Shown here piece after piece: positions 33,482 through 43,062 of a DNA stretch of 64,000 nucleotides (positions are counted from its first letter, which is position 1; each line of letters starts with the position of its first letter). The stretch lies in assembly GCA_963708295.1 (NCBI GenBank), contig CAVPSJ010000008.1, positions 128,001-192,000 on the forward strand, in the 5' to 3' direction. The notes under the pieces were generated by a model that was not told the origin of the DNA, ran no database searches, and was given only the letters and a program-made list of their open reading frames with translations. Made by a program: the position numbers and the translations under genes. Source of the DNA: an uncultured delta proteobacterium. Its GTDB lineage: Bacteria > Desulfobacterota > BSN033 > UBA1163.

Positions 33482-34270
33482 ATGTTTAGGGGATTCCTCT
33501 TTGATCTCGACGGGACCATCTATCGAAGCGAACAACTCATCCCGGGGGCAGAGGGCGTCATCCGGCTGCTTCGAGAAAAAGGAAGGAAGGTGGTTTTCCT
33601 TTCCAATAAGCCTATTCAGACCAGAGAGGATTATGCCTTGAAGCTGACCCAGCTCGGCATTCCGACTCAGCCTGAAGAGGTGATTAACTCAACCTTTGTG
33701 ATGGTCAATTATCTTAAGAAGGTTGCCCCTCTGGCCAGACTCTTCGTCGTAGGGGAGACTCCTTTTGTTGAAGAGCTGAAAAGGGCGGGTTTTCAAATCA
33801 CCGACGTGCCAAAAGAGATTGAATATGTGATCGTGGCTTTTGATCGGACATTTGATTATGGAAAACTGAACATTGCCTTCCAGGCCATCAAACTGGGAGC
33901 CCATTTTGTTGCTACCAACCCCGACCGGACATGTCCGGTCGAAGGAGGAGAAATTCCGGATTGCGCGGGGATGATCGCGGCCATTGAGGCGGTGACGGAG
34001 AAAAAAGTGGAGGTCATCGTCGGCAAACCTTCTCCCATGATGGTTCAAGCTGCACTGGATGTGCTTCGATTGCAGCCGGCCGATTGTATTCTGATCGGGG
34101 ATCGGATCGAAACGGACATCAAAATGGGGAAGGATTCGGGGATCAGCACAGGAATTGTTCTTACCGGCGTCACCAACGAAGAGATGCTCAAGAAATTCAA
34201 ACACGGCCCGCTTCAGCCCGATTTTGTTTTTCAGAGCATTGCCGACGTCGAAAACTTATTGATAGGGTGA
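33482..34270 (+). CDS. HAD-IIA phosphatase (NagD family)
   Basis: FDLDGT, LSN, ATNPD, GKP, IGDRIETDI. Confidence 0.92.
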   Translation: MFRGFLFDLDGTIYRSEQLIPGAEGVIRLLREKGRKVVFLSNKPIQTREDYALKLTQLGIPTQPEEVINSTFVMVNYLKKVAPLARLFVVGETPFVEELKRAGFQITDVPKEIEYVIVAFDRTFDYGKLNIAFQAIKLGAHFVATNPDRTCPVEGGEIPDCAGMIAAIEAVTEKKVEVIVGKPSPMMVQAALDVLRLQPADCILIGDRIETDIKMGKDSGISTGIVLTGVTNEEMLKKFKHGPLQPDFVFQSIADVENLLIG

Positions 34271-34590
34271 CACGGAGATACGGGGACGCGGGGACCCGGG
34301 GACACTGAGACGCGGAGAACCGGTGATGGGGAGATGGGGAAATTCGGAAACAATAAAATGAAGAAGAGGGAGATGCAGTCATAAGAGTCCAGTAATCTGT
34401 TCCGTGAGCATTTGTTTGATCCCGCAGACACTTTCAACCTGCCACCAATTTCTTCCTGAAATGTTGATTGTTCATTTTAGTTCCATAATACAAGATTTCA
34501 AACGGCAATTGGTAATGTGCTAATAACATTCCTTTCTTCCCAAGTTATTTTACCCCAAAAGACTCTCCAAAAACACTCCCAAAACACTCC

Positions 34591-34642
34591 TTGACAACTT
34601 AATAATAATGAAGTATCTTGCATGAGATTGATTTCATGAAAT
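34591..34642 (+). promoter_or_regulatory. Sigma70 promoter TTGACA-N17-TATCTT with a downstream palindrome ATTTCATGAAAT
   Basis: -35 at 34591, -10 at 34614, perfect 12-bp palindrome at 34631-34642. Confidence 0.6.
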
Positions 34643-34687
34643 AAAGTTTACTAGTGCATGCTGCAAACCTCGTAAGGGAGAAAGGAG

Positions 34688-35026
34688 TTGGTTGTGAAAC
34701 ATCTATCTAAATTACTTCGTATTTCACTCTTTATTGCTCTATTGGTTTTGCCAATGACCGCTTGTATGGAAGGTTCGTATGTTCTAAGTTTGACGGTTGA
34801 GACACCTCAGGATAAGGCGACTGTTAGTACGCCTACGGTCACGGTAAGTGGCACAGTCACTAAGACGGCTGAGGTGAAGATTAATGACGTGGTAGTGCCG
34901 TCTAAAGGTAGCAAATTCTCCACCGATATCAAGTTGACCGAAGGGAGCAATGTTATTACGGTTGTCGCTAAATCGGGTAAGGACACGGAAACGAAGACGC
35001 TGACTATTACCTACAAACCAAGTTAG
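34688..35026 (+). CDS. Small lipoprotein with an Ig-like (glucodextranase domain B-like) fold
   Basis: Lipobox MTAC; VTVSGTV...VKIND...LTEGSNVITVVA beta-rich pattern. Confidence 0.7.
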   Translation: MVVKHLSKLLRISLFIALLVLPMTACMEGSYVLSLTVETPQDKATVSTPTVTVSGTVTKTAEVKINDVVVPSKGSKFSTDIKLTEGSNVITVVAKSGKDTETKTLTITYKPS

Positions 35027-35187
35027 CAGTCTGGCTAAGAACAGGAATCAAATTCCAAAACTGGGAGCAATTGACGGAGGAGAAGACCTAAAATTGCCTA
35101 CAATAAATTTGTTTACTTAGATTATTAGGCACTACAGGGTCCAGAGATATACAAATATTTCTGGAGGTTAAAAACCTTGATAGTCGG

Positions 35188-35222
35188 GCCGCTATCTGTA
35201 CGTGGAGGATAGCGGCTTTTTT
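35188..35222 (+). terminator. Intrinsic terminator-like hairpin
   Basis: GCCGCTATC-loop-GATAGCGGC followed by a T tract. Confidence 0.55.
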
Positions 35223-35281
35223 ATGCAATGAACTAGAGCGGTCTTTCAAAACTTCGATTCAGAATTAAGGGAGGAATCAAC

Positions 35282-35608
35282 ATGGCAACATGGACATTTC
35301 TTACGAATCATGCAATTGTACTTTTCTTTCTGGCTAAACATCCATTAATCACTGGACGAGAGTTGTCAGGATTAATAGGGATTACGGAAAGGTCAGTAAG
35401 AAATATTATTTCTGATCTCGAATCAGAGGGGTATATCCAAAAGTCCAAAGAGGGAAGGCAAGCAAGGTATAAAACCAATCCGCATTTACCTCTTCGGCAC
35501 CGCACTCAGAAGGATAAGGCAATAAAAATTCTCCTCGAAGCATTAGACGGCGAACAAATACGAAAAGGAGCCAAGAAACGGGAAGCATCGTCGAAGGCAG
35601 TTCTATAA
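35282..35608 (+). CDS. Winged-HTH transcriptional regulator (WTFLTNH family)
   Basis: WTFLTNHA, RELSGLIGITERSVRNIISDLESEGYI, GRQARY...PLRH. Confidence 0.85.
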   Translation: MATWTFLTNHAIVLFFLAKHPLITGRELSGLIGITERSVRNIISDLESEGYIQKSKEGRQARYKTNPHLPLRHRTQKDKAIKILLEALDGEQIRKGAKKREASSKAVL

Positions 35609-35836
35609 AAAAAGGGACTCCAACTTTCTGTGTCTCCTGTTTCATCGCCTCCGTCGATGTATTCAGGTCAAGTAACGATCCACCCCCTTGTTTCAATATT
35701 TCAAACGATAATCTTGATTACTCAGTATGAGCCACCATTGCGGCTTTGTAGGTGCTATACGTAACATAATCTGCTTTTCCTTGTGATATTAGTTAGTTAA
35801 TGGCTGTTTTCCTTTATCACTTTTTTTCTATCCCTG

Positions 35837-36772
35837 TCAAGATAATTCGTTTTCAGCGCCTCCGAGTAACTCCATGCTCTCCTGTTCGTCGTCATCCTCT
35901 TGTTGCGCCTGCGTTCTTTGCAGAACCACCTGCATGGCCTTGTAGTAGTCTCGTTGGACCTTGAGGTTGGCTACGCGGCAGTAGCGCTGCGTGGTGGTAA
36001 TCTGGCCATGTCCCAGAAGGTCCTGAATGGTCGCAAGGTCGGCATCGGCATTGAGAAGCTGTGTGGCCATGGTGTGGCGAAGCCGATGACACGAGACGTT
36101 GAGTCCACTTTGTCGCCCATAGTATTCGATCCTCTTCTGAATGCCTCGGACCGATATCGGTTTGCCTCTCATCGGTCCCTTCTGCACCAGAAACAATCCT
36201 CTGGCTTTCGAGGACCGTTTCGCCAGATACACCGAAAGAGCGGATTGGGCATCTTCACTCATGTAGACCACCCGATCCTTCGCCCCTTTTCCATGGAAGA
36301 CAAAGATCTGTCTTCTCCCGTACTCTACCGCATCAACCGTCAGCTCAGCCACCTCCTGGACCCGAAGGCCGCAGCGGAGCATCAACATGAACATGGCCCG
36401 GTCTCTCAGATCCGTGATGCCATCAAAGAGGCCCCTGACCTGGTCATCCTTCAGGTGCCGGGGCAGTGGCTTGGGCAGACGGAGCGAGATCCGGGTGACA
36501 GGGTTGATGATCGATCTGCCTTCCTCATTTGTGAGATAGTCGAAGAAGAGACGAATCGTTTGCAGGTGGCACGTGATCGTCTTGGGCGTTCGTCTCTTTC
36601 GGAGCAGATGATCGACATAGGCTCCGATCTCCTTACGAGTCACATCAGAGAGAGGCACGGTAAGCCATCGGATGAACTGATCGAGGATGTTGACATAGCT
36701 CTTGACCGTGTGGGCCGAGTAGTTTTTTCTCTTCAAGGCTCTCCGGTACCCAATCAGCTCAGTAGGTTCCAT
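35837..36772 (-). CDS. Tyrosine recombinase (XerC/D-like), second of pair
   Basis: N-terminal SAM-like domain; RCGLR, GKGAK, HRLRH, LLGH, TQRY give a complete R-K-H-R-H-Y set. Confidence 0.93.
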   Translation of the reverse strand: MEPTELIGYRRALKRKNYSAHTVKSYVNILDQFIRWLTVPLSDVTRKEIGAYVDHLLRKRRTPKTITCHLQTIRLFFDYLTNEEGRSIINPVTRISLRLPKPLPRHLKDDQVRGLFDGITDLRDRAMFMLMLRCGLRVQEVAELTVDAVEYGRRQIFVFHGKGAKDRVVYMSEDAQSALSVYLAKRSSKARGLFLVQKGPMRGKPISVRGIQKRIEYYGRQSGLNVSCHRLRHTMATQLLNADADLATIQDLLGHGQITTTQRYCRVANLKVQRDYYKAMQVVLQRTQAQQEDDDEQESMELLGGAENELS

Positions 36773-37772
36773 CGATCCCTCCTTTCTCGATAATGGCCAT
36801 GGCCCGGAAGTACTCTTGTTCACGGGTTCTGTCCGTGAGCCGGGCGTATCGGCGGGTGACCTCGATGTCCTGATGACCCAGTAGCTGCTGGAGACATTCC
36901 AGGCGCATCCCCGCGTTGAGAAGCTCGGAGGCAAACGTGTGACGCAGACAATGGACCGTGTAGCCTTTCTGTTCAAACCCTGCTTTCTTGAGGTATTTTA
37001 CGAAAAGGTATCTGCCGGTACTGTAACAGAGATGCCCATTGCTCTGGCCGTAAAAGACGAATTCCTTGTTCTTGTCCCTTTGCCTCAGCCAAAGCTTGAT
37101 GGCAAACAGCGCATCGTCACTCAGATACACCACCCTCCCCATGCTGTTCTTCTCTCCCTCGTACAGATCAACCTTTCTACCTTTGATGTCCAGATCGTTT
37201 AACCTTAGTCCCAAGGCCTCGCCGATCCGGATGCCTGTCCGTAAAAGCAGAAGGATCAGAGCCCGGTCCCGGATCTCCTCAATCACCGAGAGAAGTTTTC
37301 TCACATCGACGGGGTTCATCGCCCGAGGCAGGACCTCCGGCAGCTTCAGCTTGATGCCTCGCTTGAGAACGGATCCTGGGATGATATCCTGCTCCATCAG
37401 AAAATGCACAAATGCAAGGATGCAAGCCACCCTCGTCCGCACCGTGGAGATGCGTAATCCCCGGTCCTGCTCCTGCTCGATGAAACCTTCCAGGTCCCTC
37501 CGTTCGAGTTTCTCGATTTCTCTCTTGCCTAACTTCCCATAAAAGTCCAGGAAGAGCCTGACGGAGTTAAAGGAACCGGACAGCGTACTCCGTTTGTGGT
37601 TCAGACGCCACTTGTGGCGCATGTAGCGCTCCAAGTGTTCCTTGGCGGGAAGCTCTAACCAAGAGAGCTTCTGGAGGATGCGGTCGATTGGCGTGGGTGA
37701 AAGAGGCTGTTCACGTACAACTTCATCTTCACACTTGATTGACTCATTGCTGATCAACTGTCCCTGGGTCAT
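36759..37772 (-). CDS. Tyrosine recombinase (XerC/D-like), first of pair
   Basis: RTGIR, GEKNS, HCLRH, LLGH, TRRY; RBS AAAGGAGG; overlaps the second gene by 14 bp. Confidence 0.93.
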   Translation of the reverse strand: MTQGQLISNESIKCEDEVVREQPLSPTPIDRILQKLSWLELPAKEHLERYMRHKWRLNHKRSTLSGSFNSVRLFLDFYGKLGKREIEKLERRDLEGFIEQEQDRGLRISTVRTRVACILAFVHFLMEQDIIPGSVLKRGIKLKLPEVLPRAMNPVDVRKLLSVIEEIRDRALILLLLRTGIRIGEALGLRLNDLDIKGRKVDLYEGEKNSMGRVVYLSDDALFAIKLWLRQRDKNKEFVFYGQSNGHLCYSTGRYLFVKYLKKAGFEQKGYTVHCLRHTFASELLNAGMRLECLQQLLGHQDIEVTRRYARLTDRTREQEYFRAMAIIEKGGIDGTY

Positions 37773-37983
37773 TTCTCTTCCTCCTTTTCTTTTGCAAGAA
37801 AAAGCAGAATAGATCATGACCCTTAGCACTTCTAACGGTCAATCCATTTTGTTACGTATAGGTAGGTGTAACCTGCAACCCACTTTTTCACCTCTTCCTA
37901 CCTGTAACTTTCTCTTCCCTAATTTGTGAAATGAGTGTATATTGCAAGCGGGTGAGGTGTGAAGATAATATTGAAACCAAACT

Positions 37984-38062
37984 GTCCAACTAATCGCTCA
38001 AGCGGACTCGCTGCGTCTATGCTGCGCTTCACCTGCGCTCGCCGCTTGGGGTGGTATTGGAT
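37984..38062 (+). other. Integron attC-like site
   Basis: GTCCAAC-TAATCGC-TCAAGCGGACTCGC...GCGCTCGCCGCTTGG-GGTGGT-ATTGGAT: R'', L'', L' and an R' with G>A, forming an imperfect hairpin. Confidence 0.7.
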
Positions 38063-38087
38063 CACACACGATGAAGGGGGGTCATAA

Positions 38088-38651
38088 ATGAGCAGCTACC
38101 GTGTACATTACAAAAAAGGTGATGTCGAGATTGAAGTCGAGTCTACTGACAAGGACTACGTTGGCCAAATGTTGCAGAAATTCCTCCCGCCGCAGGCGCC
38201 TAAGATTCCGGCGGGCAAACCCGCAAAGCAAAAAGGTAAACCCCCCAAAATTGGCCGTCGACATCCCCAAGGCAAGGAAGCCGTAGCGAATGAAGAAGAA
38301 ACCATGATCGATTACGCTGCAGTTGCGAACGCCGTTCATGAGTCGGACAAGACCGAGGATATTCAAAAGAACATCCTGAACAAACGGGACAATCTTGGTC
38401 GCATTCTGCTGTCATTCCACTTCGCTCATGAGGCAGGAAATGAATATCTTACAACCGGCGATGTTGAGAAGATTACCGATCAACTTAGGATTAAAATTTC
38501 TCAACCTAATGTATCGGGCTGCGTGGCCAAAAACCGCAAATACTTCTCAGCGGCGAGAGCGCGACGAAGGGGGGCAGTAGTGCCTTACAAATTGAACAGG
38601 GCAGGGGAGCAGGCTTACGAGAAACTCATAGCCGGCGGGAAGGTGAAATAG
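38088..38651 (+). CDS. Hypothetical protein with a predicted C-terminal winged-helix domain (cassette gene 1)
   Basis: KKGDVEIEVES N-terminal module, Pro/Lys linker, LTTGDVEKI...NVSGCV...YKLNRAGE wHTH-like tail. Confidence 0.75.
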   Translation: MSSYRVHYKKGDVEIEVESTDKDYVGQMLQKFLPPQAPKIPAGKPAKQKGKPPKIGRRHPQGKEAVANEEETMIDYAAVANAVHESDKTEDIQKNILNKRDNLGRILLSFHFAHEAGNEYLTTGDVEKITDQLRIKISQPNVSGCVAKNRKYFSAARARRRGAVVPYKLNRAGEQAYEKLIAGGKVK

Positions 38652-38652
38652 C

Positions 38653-39441
38653 ATGCCGTCCATAGACAAGAACACTCTTCTCGCTGCAATATGCCCACCT
38701 CTTGACCAACGTCTGGCCGACCAGATGGTTGATGAGTTCATATCATTAGAACGGCGCTACGTGCTTCGTGATTGGGAGCCGGCTACTCTTGACGGAGGTC
38801 AATTCGCGGAAGCGTCAGCAAGGCTACTATACCATCAGGACTCGAGAACCTTGAACCGCCGTAAGGGCGTAAATGAATGCCTCACCTATGTGGAAGACCC
38901 CGCCAATTCAAATCCTCATGCATTTCCGGAGCGAAAAGCAGCCCTCCATATTGACAGGATTATTCGTACCATCTACAAGTTCCGTTCAGATCGTGGTGCA
39001 GTACATATAGACCCCGATTATACGGCGAACCATCTGGACTCCAAGCTTGTACTTGAGAACTGCCGCTGGGTTATATCGGAATTCCTACGGGTGTTTTGGA
39101 CTGCAGACCGGCGCCAGGTTGCAGCTGCAATCCGGCAGATTATTCAGTATGACGTACCAGTAATCGGCGTTTATGACGGATGTCCGCTTGTTCAAAGGGT
39201 CGATTGCTCGGCAGAAGAGGAAATCCTCATCCTACTTCATCACGCCGGGGAAGAGGGGTTGAGCCGCACCGAAATCGGTCGCGCCGTACTGAGAGGGGCG
39301 CCTGCTGTCACAAAAGCTCTGACCATACTCATTTCACCGAGACGCCGCGAGGTCGTGAAGTTACAAAATGGGAACTATCGGCTGACGGATATCGGTATAC
39401 GCCGCGTTCTGACTGAGCTTGCCGATAAACTCGTAATTTGA
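38653..39441 (+). CDS. Hypothetical protein with a HEPN-like R-x6-H motif and C-terminal winged helix (cassette gene 2)
   Basis: GGQFAE...IYKFRSDRGAVH...ANHLDS; EEILILLHHAGEEGLSRTEIG...YRLTDIG. Starts 1 bp after the gene 1 stop. Confidence 0.75.
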   Translation: MPSIDKNTLLAAICPPLDQRLADQMVDEFISLERRYVLRDWEPATLDGGQFAEASARLLYHQDSRTLNRRKGVNECLTYVEDPANSNPHAFPERKAALHIDRIIRTIYKFRSDRGAVHIDPDYTANHLDSKLVLENCRWVISEFLRVFWTADRRQVAAAIRQIIQYDVPVIGVYDGCPLVQRVDCSAEEEILILLHHAGEEGLSRTEIGRAVLRGAPAVTKALTILISPRRREVVKLQNGNYRLTDIGIRRVLTELADKLVI

Positions 39442-39449
39442 GCGAGAAA

Positions 39450-39513
39450 GTCAAACAAACGGCTGCACCCGCTCCGCCGATAAACCCGGCTCCCGGTGAC
39501 CTTTTCGTTACCC
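39450..39513 (+). other. Integron attC-like site (degenerate)
   Basis: GTCAAAC-AAACGGC-TGCACC...CCGATAAACCCGG...GGTGA-CCTTTTC-GTTACCC, starting 9 bp after the gene 2 stop. Confidence 0.6.
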
Positions 39514-39686
39514 TCTCTTTCAACTCGTAATCTTTGATTCCTGATTATGGTTGTCCGTAATGACTTGTAGGTGTTATATCTATAAGAAGAGATGTTTGTT
39601 GATGTCCCTCCCCTTACCCTTTCTCCCAATCTTCTTATCTTCCCATCTCCGCGTCACCGTGTCTCGCCGTCACCGCGTCTATTATC

Positions 39687-39996
39687 TCACCGCGTCAATG
39701 CATCTCTTAAGATCTGGATAGGATGGAGGACTTTCAATCCAGTGAGGTGACGGATTTGCAGGCGACAGCCTTCGCAGTCGGACAGGATAATTTCGGGTTT
39801 GAGACGGTCGATCGCCTCCTTCAAATCCCTTCCGATCTCCTGAGAGATCTCATATTTTTCTTTCTTAAATCCATAGGTACCGCCCAGCCCGCAGCAATCC
39901 GCTTCGATGTTGTCCAGTTGAAGGCCCGGGATAGAGCGGAGGATTTCAACGGCAGGGAGGCCAATTCCCAGGGCTCTCAAATGACATGGGGCAAAA
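39687..39996 (-). pseudogene. Duplicated 3' fragment of glpC
   Basis: 39699-39996 aligns to 41624-41921 (298 bp, offset 1925) with scattered substitutions; the 5' part is missing. Confidence 0.88.
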
Positions 39997-40205
39997 AAGA
40001 AGGGGACGTAGGTTCTGAGACAACTTGGGGAAGAAGCACGAGCCCCAGCCGTTGACAAGAAAGATTCGGTTCCTTCGTCTGGGAAAGAAAAAATGGGGCA
40101 GCCAATTGAGTGTATTGTAATGGAAACACTCCTTTGTTTCGCAGTCTGTGTCAACCAGAATGGCTACTTTATTTTTGACGTGAGACGGTCAGCAGAGCAG
40201 ACAGG

Positions 40206-40640
40206 TTATTTCTTGTTCTCTTGGGAAGATAAGTATTTGATAATCGCTTTCTTATATTTTTCAAAGTCCCTTAAATCCCGGTGAAGAATTGAGACAACAA
40301 TCGTAGGATCGATGGTTTCATATTGATGGACAACGACATTTCTAAATATTGCCATCTTCTCTAATGTTCCGCATAAATTCCTACCAATCACCTTGTTTTC
40401 CATCAAAATCTTAAAAGTATCAGCATAGCCAGTTGGCAGCCTCATTTCCTGGTCAGAAATAATGTGATTCGCAATGTCGACACAAGCCTCGATAAGAATA
40501 TGCAATGTCCTCTCAACGATCCTCTGAGTTTTCCAATCGATTTTATATCGATTCAGAGAAATTCTGGAGAAATCCCCAATCTGTTTAAGATAGGTATCTA
40601 TCTGGACAAGCTTCCTCCCTATCAAGAGCTTATCAACCAA
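40206..40640 (-). CDS. HepT-like (DUF86) HEPN ribonuclease toxin
   Basis: VERTLHILIEACVDIANHII; FRNVVVHQY (RX4HXY). Confidence 0.9.
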   Translation of the reverse strand: MVDKLLIGRKLVQIDTYLKQIGDFSRISLNRYKIDWKTQRIVERTLHILIEACVDIANHIISDQEMRLPTGYADTFKILMENKVIGRNLCGTLEKMAIFRNVVVHQYETIDPTIVVSILHRDLRDFEKYKKAIIKYLSSQENKK

Positions 40641-41049
40641 TGCCGTACCTCCTATGCAGGATCTCTCTTTCTTTTATGGTAAAATCAAAAAATTCTCTCA
40701 GTATTCGAGATTCGTATTTGTGTCTCAGAAAAGGGTCTTTATCAATCAAGATTTTTCTTTTCTGCAAAATCCTTCCAGCGAGGCTAATGGGCGCGGAATT
40801 CAGGACGACCAAGTCGATCTCATCGGTACCGAGAATTCGTGAAATTTCACTGAATAACGAAAGGAAGTCTAATCTCTTTATATTCCTCACGTATATCCCC
40901 AGATCGACATCACTCAAGATTCTCCTTTTGTCTCTTGCCATGCCCCCAAAAAGGTAAGCGAAGATAATATTGGGGTCATCCATGAAAAGATCGGCTAAGA
41001 GATCGAGATGTTTGTGGATGTCTTCCGGTATCCTTTTAAAACGTATCAT
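40633..41049 (-). CDS. MntA-like minimal nucleotidyltransferase antitoxin
   Basis: FAYLFGG...SDVDLGI, EIDLVVLNSAP; overlaps the HEPN gene. Confidence 0.9.
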   Translation of the reverse strand: MIRFKRIPEDIHKHLDLLADLFMDDPNIIFAYLFGGMARDKRRILSDVDLGIYVRNIKRLDFLSLFSEISRILGTDEIDLVVLNSAPISLAGRILQKRKILIDKDPFLRHKYESRILREFFDFTIKEREILHRRYGIG

Positions 41050-41352: not shown

Positions 41353-41614
41353 GTCTAAGTCAAGCCTAATACGGGGTCTTATGCTGACGGAATTAGATTG
41401 AGTTACCAGTGAGGCCATAGTTAAGAAAACGTAATTACACTGCTTCGGTAAATTCCCATCCCTTTCCTAACCTCCCCCTTGAAGGGGGAGGAACATAATG
41501 TTTTCCCTCCCCTTCAGGGGGAGGGAAAGGGTGGGGGTGGGTTAATCAGATGTCTACTCAATTATGGACGACTAGTGAGTCTATAGAGAAAGGGAACATT
41601 GAGGAATATGAGGC

Positions 41615-42814
41615 CTACAGAAGTGCATCTCTTAGAATCTGGATGGGATGCAAAACCTTCAGGCCGGTCAGGTGGCGGATTTGCAGGCGACAGCCTTCGC
41701 AGTCGGACAGGATGATGTCGGGTTTGAGACGGTCGATCGCCTCTGCCAAATCCCTTCCGATCTCCTGGGAGATCTCATATTTTTCTTTCTTAAATCCATA
41801 GGTACCGCCCAGCCCGCAGCAGTCCGCTTCGATGTTGTCCAGTTGAAGACCCGGGATAGAGCGGAGGATTTCAACGGCAGGGAGGCCAATTCCCAGGGCT
41901 CTCAAATGACATGGGGCAAAATAGGCCGTTCTTAGCGAAAGTTGTTTAAAATTTATGTTGAGGTTATTCAATTCCTTTAGGTTTGTGAGAAACTCGAACA
42001 CGTCGAAAGTGTGGGCGGCGACTTCCTCCGCTCCGGGAATGGAGAGGAGTTGGCTGTATTCATGCTTGATCATGTAACCGCAACTGGTTCCGGAAAAGAG
42101 AATGTCCAAGCCCGAATGGACGGCCTTCAGAAAAGAGGGGACGTTCCGAAGGGCCATTTCTTTTGCCGTCTTGAAATCTCCATTCCCGAGCATGGGAATG
42201 CCGCAGCAACTCTGCGGGGGAAGGACGACTTCGAACCCATTGGCCTCCAAGACTTGAACCGTTGCTTTTCCGACGTCGACTTCATTGGTATTGGTATAGC
42301 AGCCGTAAAAATAGCCAACCCTTTTGCTCCCTTTTGAACGGTGTTTTTTAAACCATCTTCTGAAGGTCGAAGATTCGTATCCTGGGAGTTCTCTCCTCCG
42401 ATCTATCCTCAGGAGGATCTCTACGAACCTTTTGATGAGACGGTTTTTTAAGAGAGGATTGAGAAGGAAAGAGGAGAGGGATCCAAAACGTCCAAAAAGA
42501 TAGGAATGAGTGAGAAGCCAGTCCCGAAAGGGTCTTCCTTTTTCATCCAGATATTTTGCCTTGGCGATGAGATTTAGCTCGGAGATATTTACCCCCGAAG
42601 CGCAGACCATGTCACAGAGATGGCATCCGATGCAAAGATCAATCCGTTTATCCACAGAGGGTTCATCCGACCTTCGAAACCGTTCCATCCCGGGCCCCGC
42701 TTGCTTCGGGCCTGGAAATTCTGGGGTGACTCGCGCGACAGGGCAGACCGCCGCGCAGGTCGCGCAGCGGATGCAAACATCGGAGTTATTCTTGGGCCAA
42801 CTTTGTTTTTTCAT
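41615..42814 (-). CDS. glpC: Anaerobic glycerol-3-phosphate dehydrogenase subunit C
   Basis: CIRCATCAAVCP, FPGPKQAGP, CIGCHLCDMVC, two CCG domains. Confidence 0.93.
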   Translation of the reverse strand: MKKQSWPKNNSDVCIRCATCAAVCPVARVTPEFPGPKQAGPGMERFRRSDEPSVDKRIDLCIGCHLCDMVCASGVNISELNLIAKAKYLDEKGRPFRDWLLTHSYLFGRFGSLSSFLLNPLLKNRLIKRFVEILLRIDRRRELPGYESSTFRRWFKKHRSKGSKRVGYFYGCYTNTNEVDVGKATVQVLEANGFEVVLPPQSCCGIPMLGNGDFKTAKEMALRNVPSFLKAVHSGLDILFSGTSCGYMIKHEYSQLLSIPGAEEVAAHTFDVFEFLTNLKELNNLNINFKQLSLRTAYFAPCHLRALGIGLPAVEILRSIPGLQLDNIEADCCGLGGTYGFKKEKYEISQEIGRDLAEAIDRLKPDIILSDCEGCRLQIRHLTGLKVLHPIQILRDALL

Positions 42815-42852: not shown

Positions 42853-43062
42853 AAAAATTCGAAATCCGAATATCGAAGCCCGAAGTTGTTTAAACCCTAA
42901 ACACTAAACTCTAAATCCTAAACAAATCCAAAATATAAAACCCAAAGGGTAATTTTCACTTCTCAACCATTGAACGAAATACTTTGTAAGTCGTGGCGTT
43001 TTGAGTTTTCTCATTCGAGCATTTGAGTTTATTTAGAGTTTAGGATTTTGAGTTTAGGATTT
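42853..43062. repeat. 7-bp-period palindromic repeat: a CGA-type half followed by a complete TAA-type variant
   Basis: AAATTCGAAATCCGAATATCGAAGCCCGAA, then AAACCCTAAACACTAAACTCTAAATCCTAAACAAAT ... TTTATTTAGAGTTTAGGATTTTGAGTTTAGGATTT. Confidence 0.75.

Follow-up and report, generated by a model that had tools for sequence, protein, structure and literature searches.

A probable insertion-sequence-sized mobile element with two Xer-like tyrosine recombinases and a multicopy target repeat in an uncultured delta proteobacterium

What kind of genetic object is formed by two overlapping XerC/XerD-like genes that lie, with no other gene of size, between a pair of inverted repeats? The arrangement occurs in the window analysed here, a stretch of 64,000 nucleotides from contig C8 (CAVPSJ010000008.1) of the 20-contig, 4.9-Mb genome of an uncultured delta proteobacterium. 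The original prediction, made from the letters of the window, described an insertion sequence (IS)-sized, site-specific mobile ‘recombinase duo’. Comparison with other copies, with related genomes and with metagenomes bears this out: the locus is very likely a discrete, IS-sized element that moves site-specifically and whose sole genes encode two Xer-like tyrosine recombinases, termed A and B.

The element is a 2,107-bp unit (Table 1). Genes A and B overlap by 14 nt, and AAGGAGG precedes each of them. The ends are 16-bp inverted repeats that match at 15 of 16 positions, IR-L at the gene-B-distal end and IR-R at the gene-A-proximal end, and the heptamer GTAGGTG abuts both on the outside; these features had been foreseen and are read directly at the predicted positions. 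A repeat of 16 bp is unexceptional by itself, being one among 53 inverted pairs in 2.8 kb, and we accept it as real because homology between copies stops exactly at it. A second, subterminal inverted repeat, absent from the original prediction, has 17-nt arms that match at 88%. The predicted TTGACC…CATGAT promoter is present just inside the right repeat, but the region contains four promoter-like sites against 1.7 ± 1.1 in shuffled sequence, and the match is therefore weak on its own. TTGACC is kept in most gene-A-proximal ends of other copies.

The element is mobile and multicopy, and it lies in many different flanks. A search for other copies, which the original prediction had recommended, returned three full copies and three fragments in this genome and 31 loci elsewhere. 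Beside the window copy, the full copies are C12:1-2116, which is 100% identical to it over 2,116 bp and has a different right flank, and C5:100071-102192, which is 94–96% identical. The fragments consist of a right end with half of A (C17:30878-31556), a solitary right end (C11:217487-217672) and a left end with the B C-terminus (C17:393510-393856). GTAGGTG directly follows all five right ends in this genome, with differing sequence beyond it. The 31 loci outside the genome come from a scan of one genome per species for A homologues (47–90% identity) and belong to Thermodesulfobacteriota or ‘delta’ metagenome-assembled genomes (MAGs), one Aminicenantes MAG and one Manganitrophaceae chromosome. 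At 22 of these loci both genes stand intact and side by side; the others are cut by contig ends or have shorter frames. We also observed two inverted element copies 4.2 kb apart in one relative (G010:C2:1516477-1518586 and 1522784-1524890), with a U repeat (described below) outside each; with this arrangement the enclosed segment could be inverted or mobilised.

Both junctions are readable in 20 elements, some of which share a genome; the C5 and window copies among them share a left flank. The same 7-mer stands at both junctions in 19 of the 20, being GTAGGTG in 17 elements, GTAGATG in one (L036) and CTTCCTG in one (L029); in the sole mismatch (L041) AGTAGTG is paired with GTAGGTG. Homologous pairs elsewhere thus keep the inverted-repeat core and matching 7-mers, as expected of the mobile duo. 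Co-variation of the 7-mer at the two junctions marks it as the core that is exchanged; it is not a constant segment of the element. The unlike 7-mers, found on the U side or at the left end (CATCCTG, AGACTTG and AGTAGTG), all have TG next to the repeat, and TG also forms the last two bases before IR-L at the edge of contig C12. The family is not uniform. In one subfamily (L039–L042, 54% identity) the polarity of the 7-mer relative to the genes is opposite, and variants of 3.3–3.4 kb contain a third conserved gene of about 400 amino acids (aa) inside the inverted repeats (L022:7996-9216, L029:7930-9108), for which no Pfam or NCBIfam family and no integrase domain was found.

The nature of the target follows from a feature new beyond the original prediction: GTAGGTG is the 3' end of a lineage-specific multicopy repeat. 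It forms the last 7 bases of a repeat of about 70 bp, here called U, with the consensus TTTCAAxCCGTAATCATCAAC, about 30 variable bases and then TT-GTAGGTG. As predicted, the 7-mer is a direct repeat at the two ends, but it is a crossover core inside a multicopy repeat and not an arbitrary target. Some 20 copies of U continue into a further conserved half, D, with the consensus xACTCGCCAAATTTTACTATCAACCTGCTCCAAAAATCTCGAAAAGGAAATTTCATTTAGTT-CTTCCTG-AAAT. A sequence-only model of U has 72 matches in this genome, 13–119 in each of the same-genus genomes (14 of 14), 0–37 in ten other genera of the family and 0–4 per genome in 16 genomes outside the family. The Aminicenantes genome has two matches, both beside the element, and the Manganitrophaceae genome has two, one of them abutting it. 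About 50 sites of the U family in this genome are unoccupied. The heptamer itself is found 269 times in the genome, fewer than the roughly 603 expected, and 53 of the U hits extend to it.

In other genomes U adjoins the element at 12 of 21 readable U-side junctions (nhmmer, E < 0.01). On the opposite side, canonical or near-canonical D follows the right ends on C12, C11 and C17. Canonical D has GTAGGT, 24 nt and then AACCTGC, and by this spacing the right flank in the window looks like D with an internal deletion. Across 36 U sites (34 unoccupied) in which at least 6 of the 7 core positions match the 7-mer, there is a weak dyad, GAtTT / GTAGGTG / xAaTC. The element arms, TATAG / 7 / CTATA, have A-T in common with the target at −4/−3 and +3/+4. 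An imperfect palindrome, TTGTAGGT-GTA-ACCTGCAA, had been predicted to be rebuilt on removal of the element; it is literally present, but unoccupied sites repeatedly show a different register, a dyad with the 7-mer at its centre. U does not fold better than shuffled sequence (50 copies, mean z −0.10 for the top and −0.26 for the bottom strand), and an Rfam scan of a U array on C17 returned 0 families. A reading of U as a reverse-strand small open reading frame (ORF) and of D as a promoter was inconsistent on inspection by eye and was dropped. Three solo sites in this genome (C15:113636-113655, C20:144765-144790 on the minus strand and C3:3138-3160 on the minus strand) consist of a U or U-like end, GTAGGTG and a 10–12-nt remnant resembling IR-L (CTATACGTAATT, GTATACGTGACA and CTATACGTATTA in G000), with recombinase genes not nearby; they may be footprints of lost copies.

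Joined ends were searched for with the pattern IR-R core–N7–IR-L core. It occurs in three metagenome contigs (L081, L082 and L083), in no viral contig and in none of the 68 genomes searched from the class, so chromosomal tandems are uncommon. In the 2,246-bp contig L083 the gene-A-proximal end is joined head to tail to the gene-B-distal end via ACAGGAA. The other two contigs represent one arrangement, the element beside a 24-nt solo end that itself abuts U. The joined form, of which L083 holds an actual head-to-tail junction, is similar to lox and dif sites, with a deduced 12-7-12 organisation of inverted arms around an asymmetric 7-bp spacer. In the Logan contigs of four sequencing runs (X1–X4), summed contig depth on the element is 10- to 100-fold above that of the flanks in three of the four sets and about 4–8-fold in X4. 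These contigs also show other left flanks, namely U of another subtype followed by GTAGGTG and one junction with AGACTTG.

Relatives of A are numerous: 7,070 of 8,000 candidate proteins match at E ≤ 1e-20. The best 120 are 84–90% identical and are named XerD, XerC or integrase; they lie mostly on contigs of 1.2–3 kb, as expected for a collapsed repeat. Among PLSDB plasmids there is no relative above 36% identity, the best being 27–36% identical. The element is abundant in sediment, soil and wetland metagenomes; its annotation there, exclusively as XerC or XerD, is a source of error that should be corrected.

A and B share 29% identity. Each matches Pfam Phage_integrase (E = 1e-35 for A and 8e-37 for B) and contains an N-terminal SAM-like domain. 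The nearest NCBIfam models are archaeal XerA, XerC, XerD and the integron integrase, all with scores far below the curated cut-offs: A and B reach 153 and 193 bits for XerA (cut-off 220), 138 and 192 for the XerC equivalog TIGR02224 (335) and 121 and 166 for the XerD equivalog TIGR02225 (330). The closest solved structures are XerA, XerC-like and XerD. In B, the residues R, K, H, R, H and Y are kept in 25 of 25 homologues. The R, H, R, H and Y of A are invariant in 24 of 24, and a conserved Lys lies three residues upstream of the canonical hairpin position. The claim of two overlapping, catalytically complete genes as the sole content therefore holds for the gene pair, its overlap and B, but needs qualifying for A, which is without the canonical Lys. 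The displaced lysine suggests unequal roles. B appears from its residues to be the conventional catalyst, and A may be a specialised or partly regulatory partner, since it is A that lacks the hairpin lysine. An AlphaFold model of A (14-row alignment, mean predicted local distance difference test score 76) has residues 1–23 disordered, extra helices at 28–56 and then an ordinary core-binding domain; no β-rich arm-binding domain is seen in it.

Inverted repeats around recombinase genes and proteins of Xer type would also fit a fixed chromosomal Xer-like pair, or a non-mobile invertible switch bounded by the repeats. Both are contradicted by copies in many unrelated flanks, two of them 100% identical at two sites. 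The 7-mers, moreover, are direct and not inverted, so that exchange between them excises and does not invert. With scores of 138–192 bits against 335, far below the XerC and XerD cut-offs, and with the element present in several copies, A and B also differ from the XerC/XerD pair of dimer resolution. We regard a fixed pair or switch as exceedingly improbable.

A site-specific mobile element could move as follows. A and B would bind both ends and pair them, and staggered cleavage 7 bp apart would excise a circle, the junction of which would be a lox-like site, TGTTACGTATAG - 7 bp - CTATACGTAACA. The circle would recombine with a chromosomal core of the same or nearly the same 7 bp, leaving one 7-mer at each junction, and the asymmetry of the 7-mer would fix the orientation of insertion. 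Transcription of A and, after it, B would start at the promoter-like site inside the right end. The TG kept beside the repeat at unlike junctions suggests that homology is needed mainly at one exchange point. In CTnDOT, homology matters mainly at one exchange point. The unlike junctions also resemble the fingerprint and footprint behaviour described for strand-biased circularizing integrative elements (SE; PMC10214605).

Sites without the element provide a further view of the locus. As the original prediction had anticipated, relatives have empty sites, which correspond to the 5.4-kb block in the window, to the C5 locus and to the end of cassette 1 (Table 1). The 5.4-kb insertion contains, in order, cassette 1, the element and a second block with its own U (ORFs 38088-39441). 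Three relatives (G003, G004 and G010) join window positions ~34302 and ~39687 with 6–28 bp between, and the same join has ~66 bp in G007 and ~90 bp in G002. Homology between the C5 copy and the window extends over 3.4 kb (34450-37868, 95.6%), and the C5 locus is empty in six relatives (G003, G011, G012, G013, G001 and G007), where a palindromic terminator is found. Homologues of cassette 1 in G009 and G001 end at GTAGATA and GTAGATG with no element after them; the left boundary of the cassette is identical in the window, C5 and G009, at CTTCCTG. For one of the G010 copies no empty site was found, its flanks being non-syntenic in 14 relatives.

Table 1. Features of the element and its surroundings, in window coordinates
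Feature	Position	Strand	Remarks
Whole 5.4-kb insertion	34303..39686	.	Missing at relatives' orthologous locus; between HAD-hydrolase gene and duplicated CCG/Fer4 gene 3' end
Cassette 1	34450..35754	+	Left bound CTTCCTG (34452-34458), right bound GTAGGTG; duplicated with element at C5
Cassette 1 ORF, small lipoprotein-like	34688-35026		
Cassette 1 ORF, winged-helix	35282-35608		
U repeat at 3' end of left-hand gene block	35685..35754	+	E 5e-13
Left 7-bp crossover core GTAGGTG	35748..35754	+	Also final 7 bases of U repeat
Element proper	35755..37861	-	IR-L outer end to IR-R outer end; homology with C12, C5 and other-genome copies stops here
IR-L, gene-B-distal end, CTATACGTAACATAAT	35755..35770	+	
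Conserved core CTATACGTAACA within IR-L	35755-35766		Core kept at both ends in other genomes
Subterminal inverted repeat 2, left arm	35767..35783	+	Abuts IR-L; 17/17 in L019, L020
Recombinase B	35837..36772	-	311 aa, Xer-like; full R-K-H-R-H-Y set
Recombinase A	36759..37772	-	337 aa, Xer-like, ATG; R-H-R-H-Y, displaced hairpin Lys, two extra N-terminal helices
Subterminal inverted repeat 2, right arm	37795..37811	+	34 bp inside IR-R; gap holds promoter-like site
Promoter-like TTGACC-18-CATGAT	37813..37842	-	Reads into gene A; 9/12 matches
IR-R, gene-A-proximal end	37846..37861	+	15/16 inverted match to IR-L
Right 7-bp core GTAGGTG	37862..37868	+	GTAGGTG after 5/5 right ends in genome, flanks beyond differ
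Degenerate D remnant (TAACCTGC ... CTTCCTA)	37869..37900	+	In right flank; inferred against canonical D at C12, C11, C17
Second U, closing right-hand block	39504..39573	+	E 1.6e-13; block ORFs 38088-38651, 38653-39441

Several observations weigh against the reading of the locus as a site-specific mobile element. No orthologous empty site was found for this unit alone. The left flank of the C12 copy is not readable, the contig beginning 2 nt before IR-L. The C5 and window copies have 1.3 kb of left flank in common, and this pair therefore moved as a 3.4-kb composite, the left boundary of which is CTTCCTG with no inverted repeat there. (A degenerate inverted end, CACCTCTATATAGAAC, seen to the left of the C5 composite was dropped as it has no counterpart in the window copy.) The target arms resemble the element arms at only two positions per arm. 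In the HMMER alignment, A has Met (I, R, V or Q in homologues) at the β-hairpin Lys of XerD and XerA. The circle junction predicted earlier has a counterpart in the head-to-tail junction of L083, but that contig was read over 457 of its 2,246 bases and fits an excised circle or a tandem alike, and the Logan contigs of the four runs, in which rare forms are dropped, contain no circle junction and no skip joint.

Other observations concern the surroundings of the insertion. A partial first U block, ATTTCAAACGGCAAT, lies near the 5' end of cassette 1 (34482-34509, E 0.008), oriented like the full U at its 3' end. In G009 (L068, G009:C189) an ORF starts directly after the GTAGATA 7-mer position that follows the cassette 1 homologue. 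Its opening motif is presumably that of IS110-family transposases, and a second kind of site-specific element may use the cassette 1 boundary there. Intergenic terminators are long palindromes of heptad-like repeats (GGGGACxCGG, GCATAGGG and similar), with a heptad that differs between species. They are found at 34270-34340 and 39620-39690 in the window and at 98680-98712 and 102240-102290 in G000:C5, and the 5.4-kb insert and the C5 insert both sit in the loop of such a palindrome. About 300 bp of the 3' end of the CCG/Fer4 (GlpC-like) gene is duplicated at 93% identity (39699-39999 and 41624-41924), with a HepT-like / nucleotidyltransferase toxin-antitoxin pair (40206-41049) and a small ORF between the duplicates, which is the pattern expected from an insertion bringing a replacement 3' end. 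Two other short repeat families, at 41400-41576 and 42862-42990, have dozens of copies in the genome at 75–97% identity and are unrelated to U and D. A 1.5-kb unit with two small ORFs and a B12-binding-domain ORF is multicopy across the genus at 84–90% identity (C17:5466-7017, C5:18272-19703 and three copies in G010); its boundaries are not at U sites, and it is therefore another mobile unit.

The composite, and the blocks that end in U, raise a broader possibility, to which we give limited credence: the duo may be the recombinase module of an integron-like system in which U / 7-mer / D repeats bound gene cassettes. This would add to the explanation of the locus as a mobile element without replacing it, the 2.1-kb element being a self-encoding cassette. 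There would be two crossover cores, GTAGGTG and, 62 bp downstream, CTTCCTG, and their arms are similar (xAxTT - 7 - AAxTC). Both of these 7-mers bound cassette 1, and both are duo cores, CTTCCTG standing on both sides of L029 and GTAGGTG on both sides of most others. Cassette 1 itself occurs in four contexts (window, C5, G009 and G001). Between 2 and 50 kb of C17 there are 17 matches to the repeat profile, 13 with the U half and all in one orientation. They lie mostly just 3' of unrelated same-strand genes, which encode response regulators, a cupin, radical-SAM enzymes, a histidine kinase, acyltransferases and others. In same-genus genomes the blocks are non-syntenic, being found singly, elsewhere and reordered at 83–97% identity, and in one block pair homology stops 6 nt past the 7-mer. 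The genome contains no integron integrase over the cut-off and few other tyrosine recombinases.

Other evidence points away from cassettes. At E ≤ 1e-60 the A gene was detected in just 5 of the 14 genus genomes, and in 7 of 40 relatives, though U is in 14 of 14, a weak objection as MAGs often lose repeats. No cassette circle was seen, and U is non-folding and hence not attC-like. A paralogue pair on C17 and C4 diverges near the stop codon and not at the 7-mer or U. Homologous recombination between 150-bp repeats could also reshuffle the blocks, and a segment with two different bounding 7-mers, such as cassette 1, is not movable by a single homology-dependent exchange. The wider pattern speaks for a cassette system in which the duo acts, without proving one. 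Conceivably, then, a mobile Xer-like pair excises and reinserts U-ended blocks via double-stranded, lox-like 7-bp cores, a previously undescribed form of cassette shuffling. Tentatively, such a system would be in function an integron without IntI and without folded attC sites. If this is true, integron-style gene capture would have been solved a second time and independently, and the U family would mark where the shuffled gene blocks of these sediment bacteria end.

For the mobile element itself, all components are legible in the sequence, from the arms and the 7-bp core to the target dyad and the two small proteins. This makes it a compact model for the sharing of a reaction between two different tyrosine recombinases and a candidate small tool for site-specific integration. 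In structure it resembles an IS, with a length below 2.5 kb, mobility genes only, terminal inverted repeats and short direct repeats at its junctions. ISs use a DDE, DEDD, HUH or serine transposase, whereas both proteins here are Phage_integrase tyrosine recombinases; tyrosine recombinases are not known among the enzymes of catalogued IS families.

We considered whether the element is a reduced member of a described multi-recombinase family (RIT, Tn554, SE or GInt). Statements on these families refer to the accessible text of three articles (PMC10214605, PMC3414803 and PMC8138268), and the element is set apart from RIT, Tn554 and SE by their descriptions, not by direct protein comparison. Overlapping recombinase genes, imperfect terminal inverted repeats, a travelling spacer and few targets are features that it has in common with those families (PMC10214605). 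The element has two genes where these families have three or four, and the third gene of its 3.3–3.4-kb variants lacks an integrase domain. Its proteins, of 311–337 aa, are grouped by NCBIfam and Pfam with XerA, XerC and XerD, there is no large partner of TnpB or IntB type and no TnpC or Srap-like gene, and the plasmid relatives are at best 27–36% identical. Membership in one of these families is thus very unlikely. The known multi-recombinase elements are also larger, and their ends and mechanisms are described as only partly resolved. In the open full-text literature searched, neither a two-recombinase element of comparable size nor the repeats are described, and none of the families described there fits, in keeping with the original prediction; a search for the repeat sequence returned only mouse Cre-line papers, which are irrelevant. 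A classification of simple tyrosine recombinases recognises Xer, Rit, TnpA and integron-like groups and, in its accessible text, describes no duo element (PMC8138268).

The element resembles SE and Tn554 in several respects. Two tyrosine recombinases, imperfect terminal inverted repeats of 13–19 bp and a 6–7-bp spacer in the joined form are common features, as are the few selected targets and the rare unlike junction 7-mers, as if one were target-derived (PMC10214605). The 7-mers of our element differ in that they match in 19 of 20 cases. SE, GInt and Tn554 rely on three or four genes (PMC10214605). Tn554 has TnpA, a large TnpB and TnpC, whereas the 2.1-kb element has two small Xer-like proteins (337 and 311 aa) and no third small gene. 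SE and GInt have four core genes, including a non-catalytic recombinase-like protein; here there are two, and both proteins have RHRHY.

RIT (recombinase in trio) elements also consist solely of overlapping tyrosine-recombinase genes, are multicopy and have flanking inverted repeats, but they contain three consecutive recombinase genes in about 3.5 kb (PMC3414803), compared with two genes, in 22 of 31 loci, and 2.1 kb. Two core-binding domains are present in RitA (PMC8138268), compared with one, plus two extra helices, in the model of A. The ends and target of RIT elements were unresolved in 2012 (PMC3414803) and are explicit here. No Rit model is among the NCBIfam or Pfam hits of A and B. An overlapping recombinase pair in Sinorhizobium, cut by ISRm3, is 24–29% identical to A and B; a second Sinorhizobium plasmid match is a recombinase beside an IS91-family gene, and both matches are only 24–30% identical. 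A BIM comprises one recombinase and a conserved SMC-like protein (PMC3414803), unlike the two recombinases of the element.

Its junction, two inverted 12-bp arms around an asymmetric 7-bp spacer, is comparable to Cre/loxP and XerC/XerD-dif, and A and B are closest to XerA, XerC and XerD. An arm end of loxP is similar to the CGTATAG of the element. In contrast to those systems, the recombinases here lie between their own half-sites, move and are multicopy. Integrons are similar in having same-orientation boundary repeats 3' of unrelated genes, with a tyrosine recombinase inserting at the boundaries. IS1111-attC elements are insertion elements that target the boundary sites of integrons, and the cassette boundary in G009 presumably has an IS110-like gene, to judge by its motif. 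The differences are that IntI is missing (TIGR02249 gives 78 and 112 bits against 265, with no hit over the cut-off in the genome), that U forms no hairpin whereas attC folds into an imperfect one, that there are two recombinases and that the recombinase module is itself mobile. The coupling sequences of CTnDOT and Tn916 include a 7-bp crossover, and their occasional unlike junctions keep a dinucleotide beside one arm; a 7-bp core, with TG kept in CATCCTG, AGACTTG and AGTAGTG, is the corresponding feature here. CTnDOT and Tn916 are large and conjugative, and their single integrase contains an arm-binding domain; most junction pairs of our element, unlike theirs, are identical. Among these systems, the element is a minimal, IS-like form of tyrosine-recombinase transposable element with a defined multicopy target.

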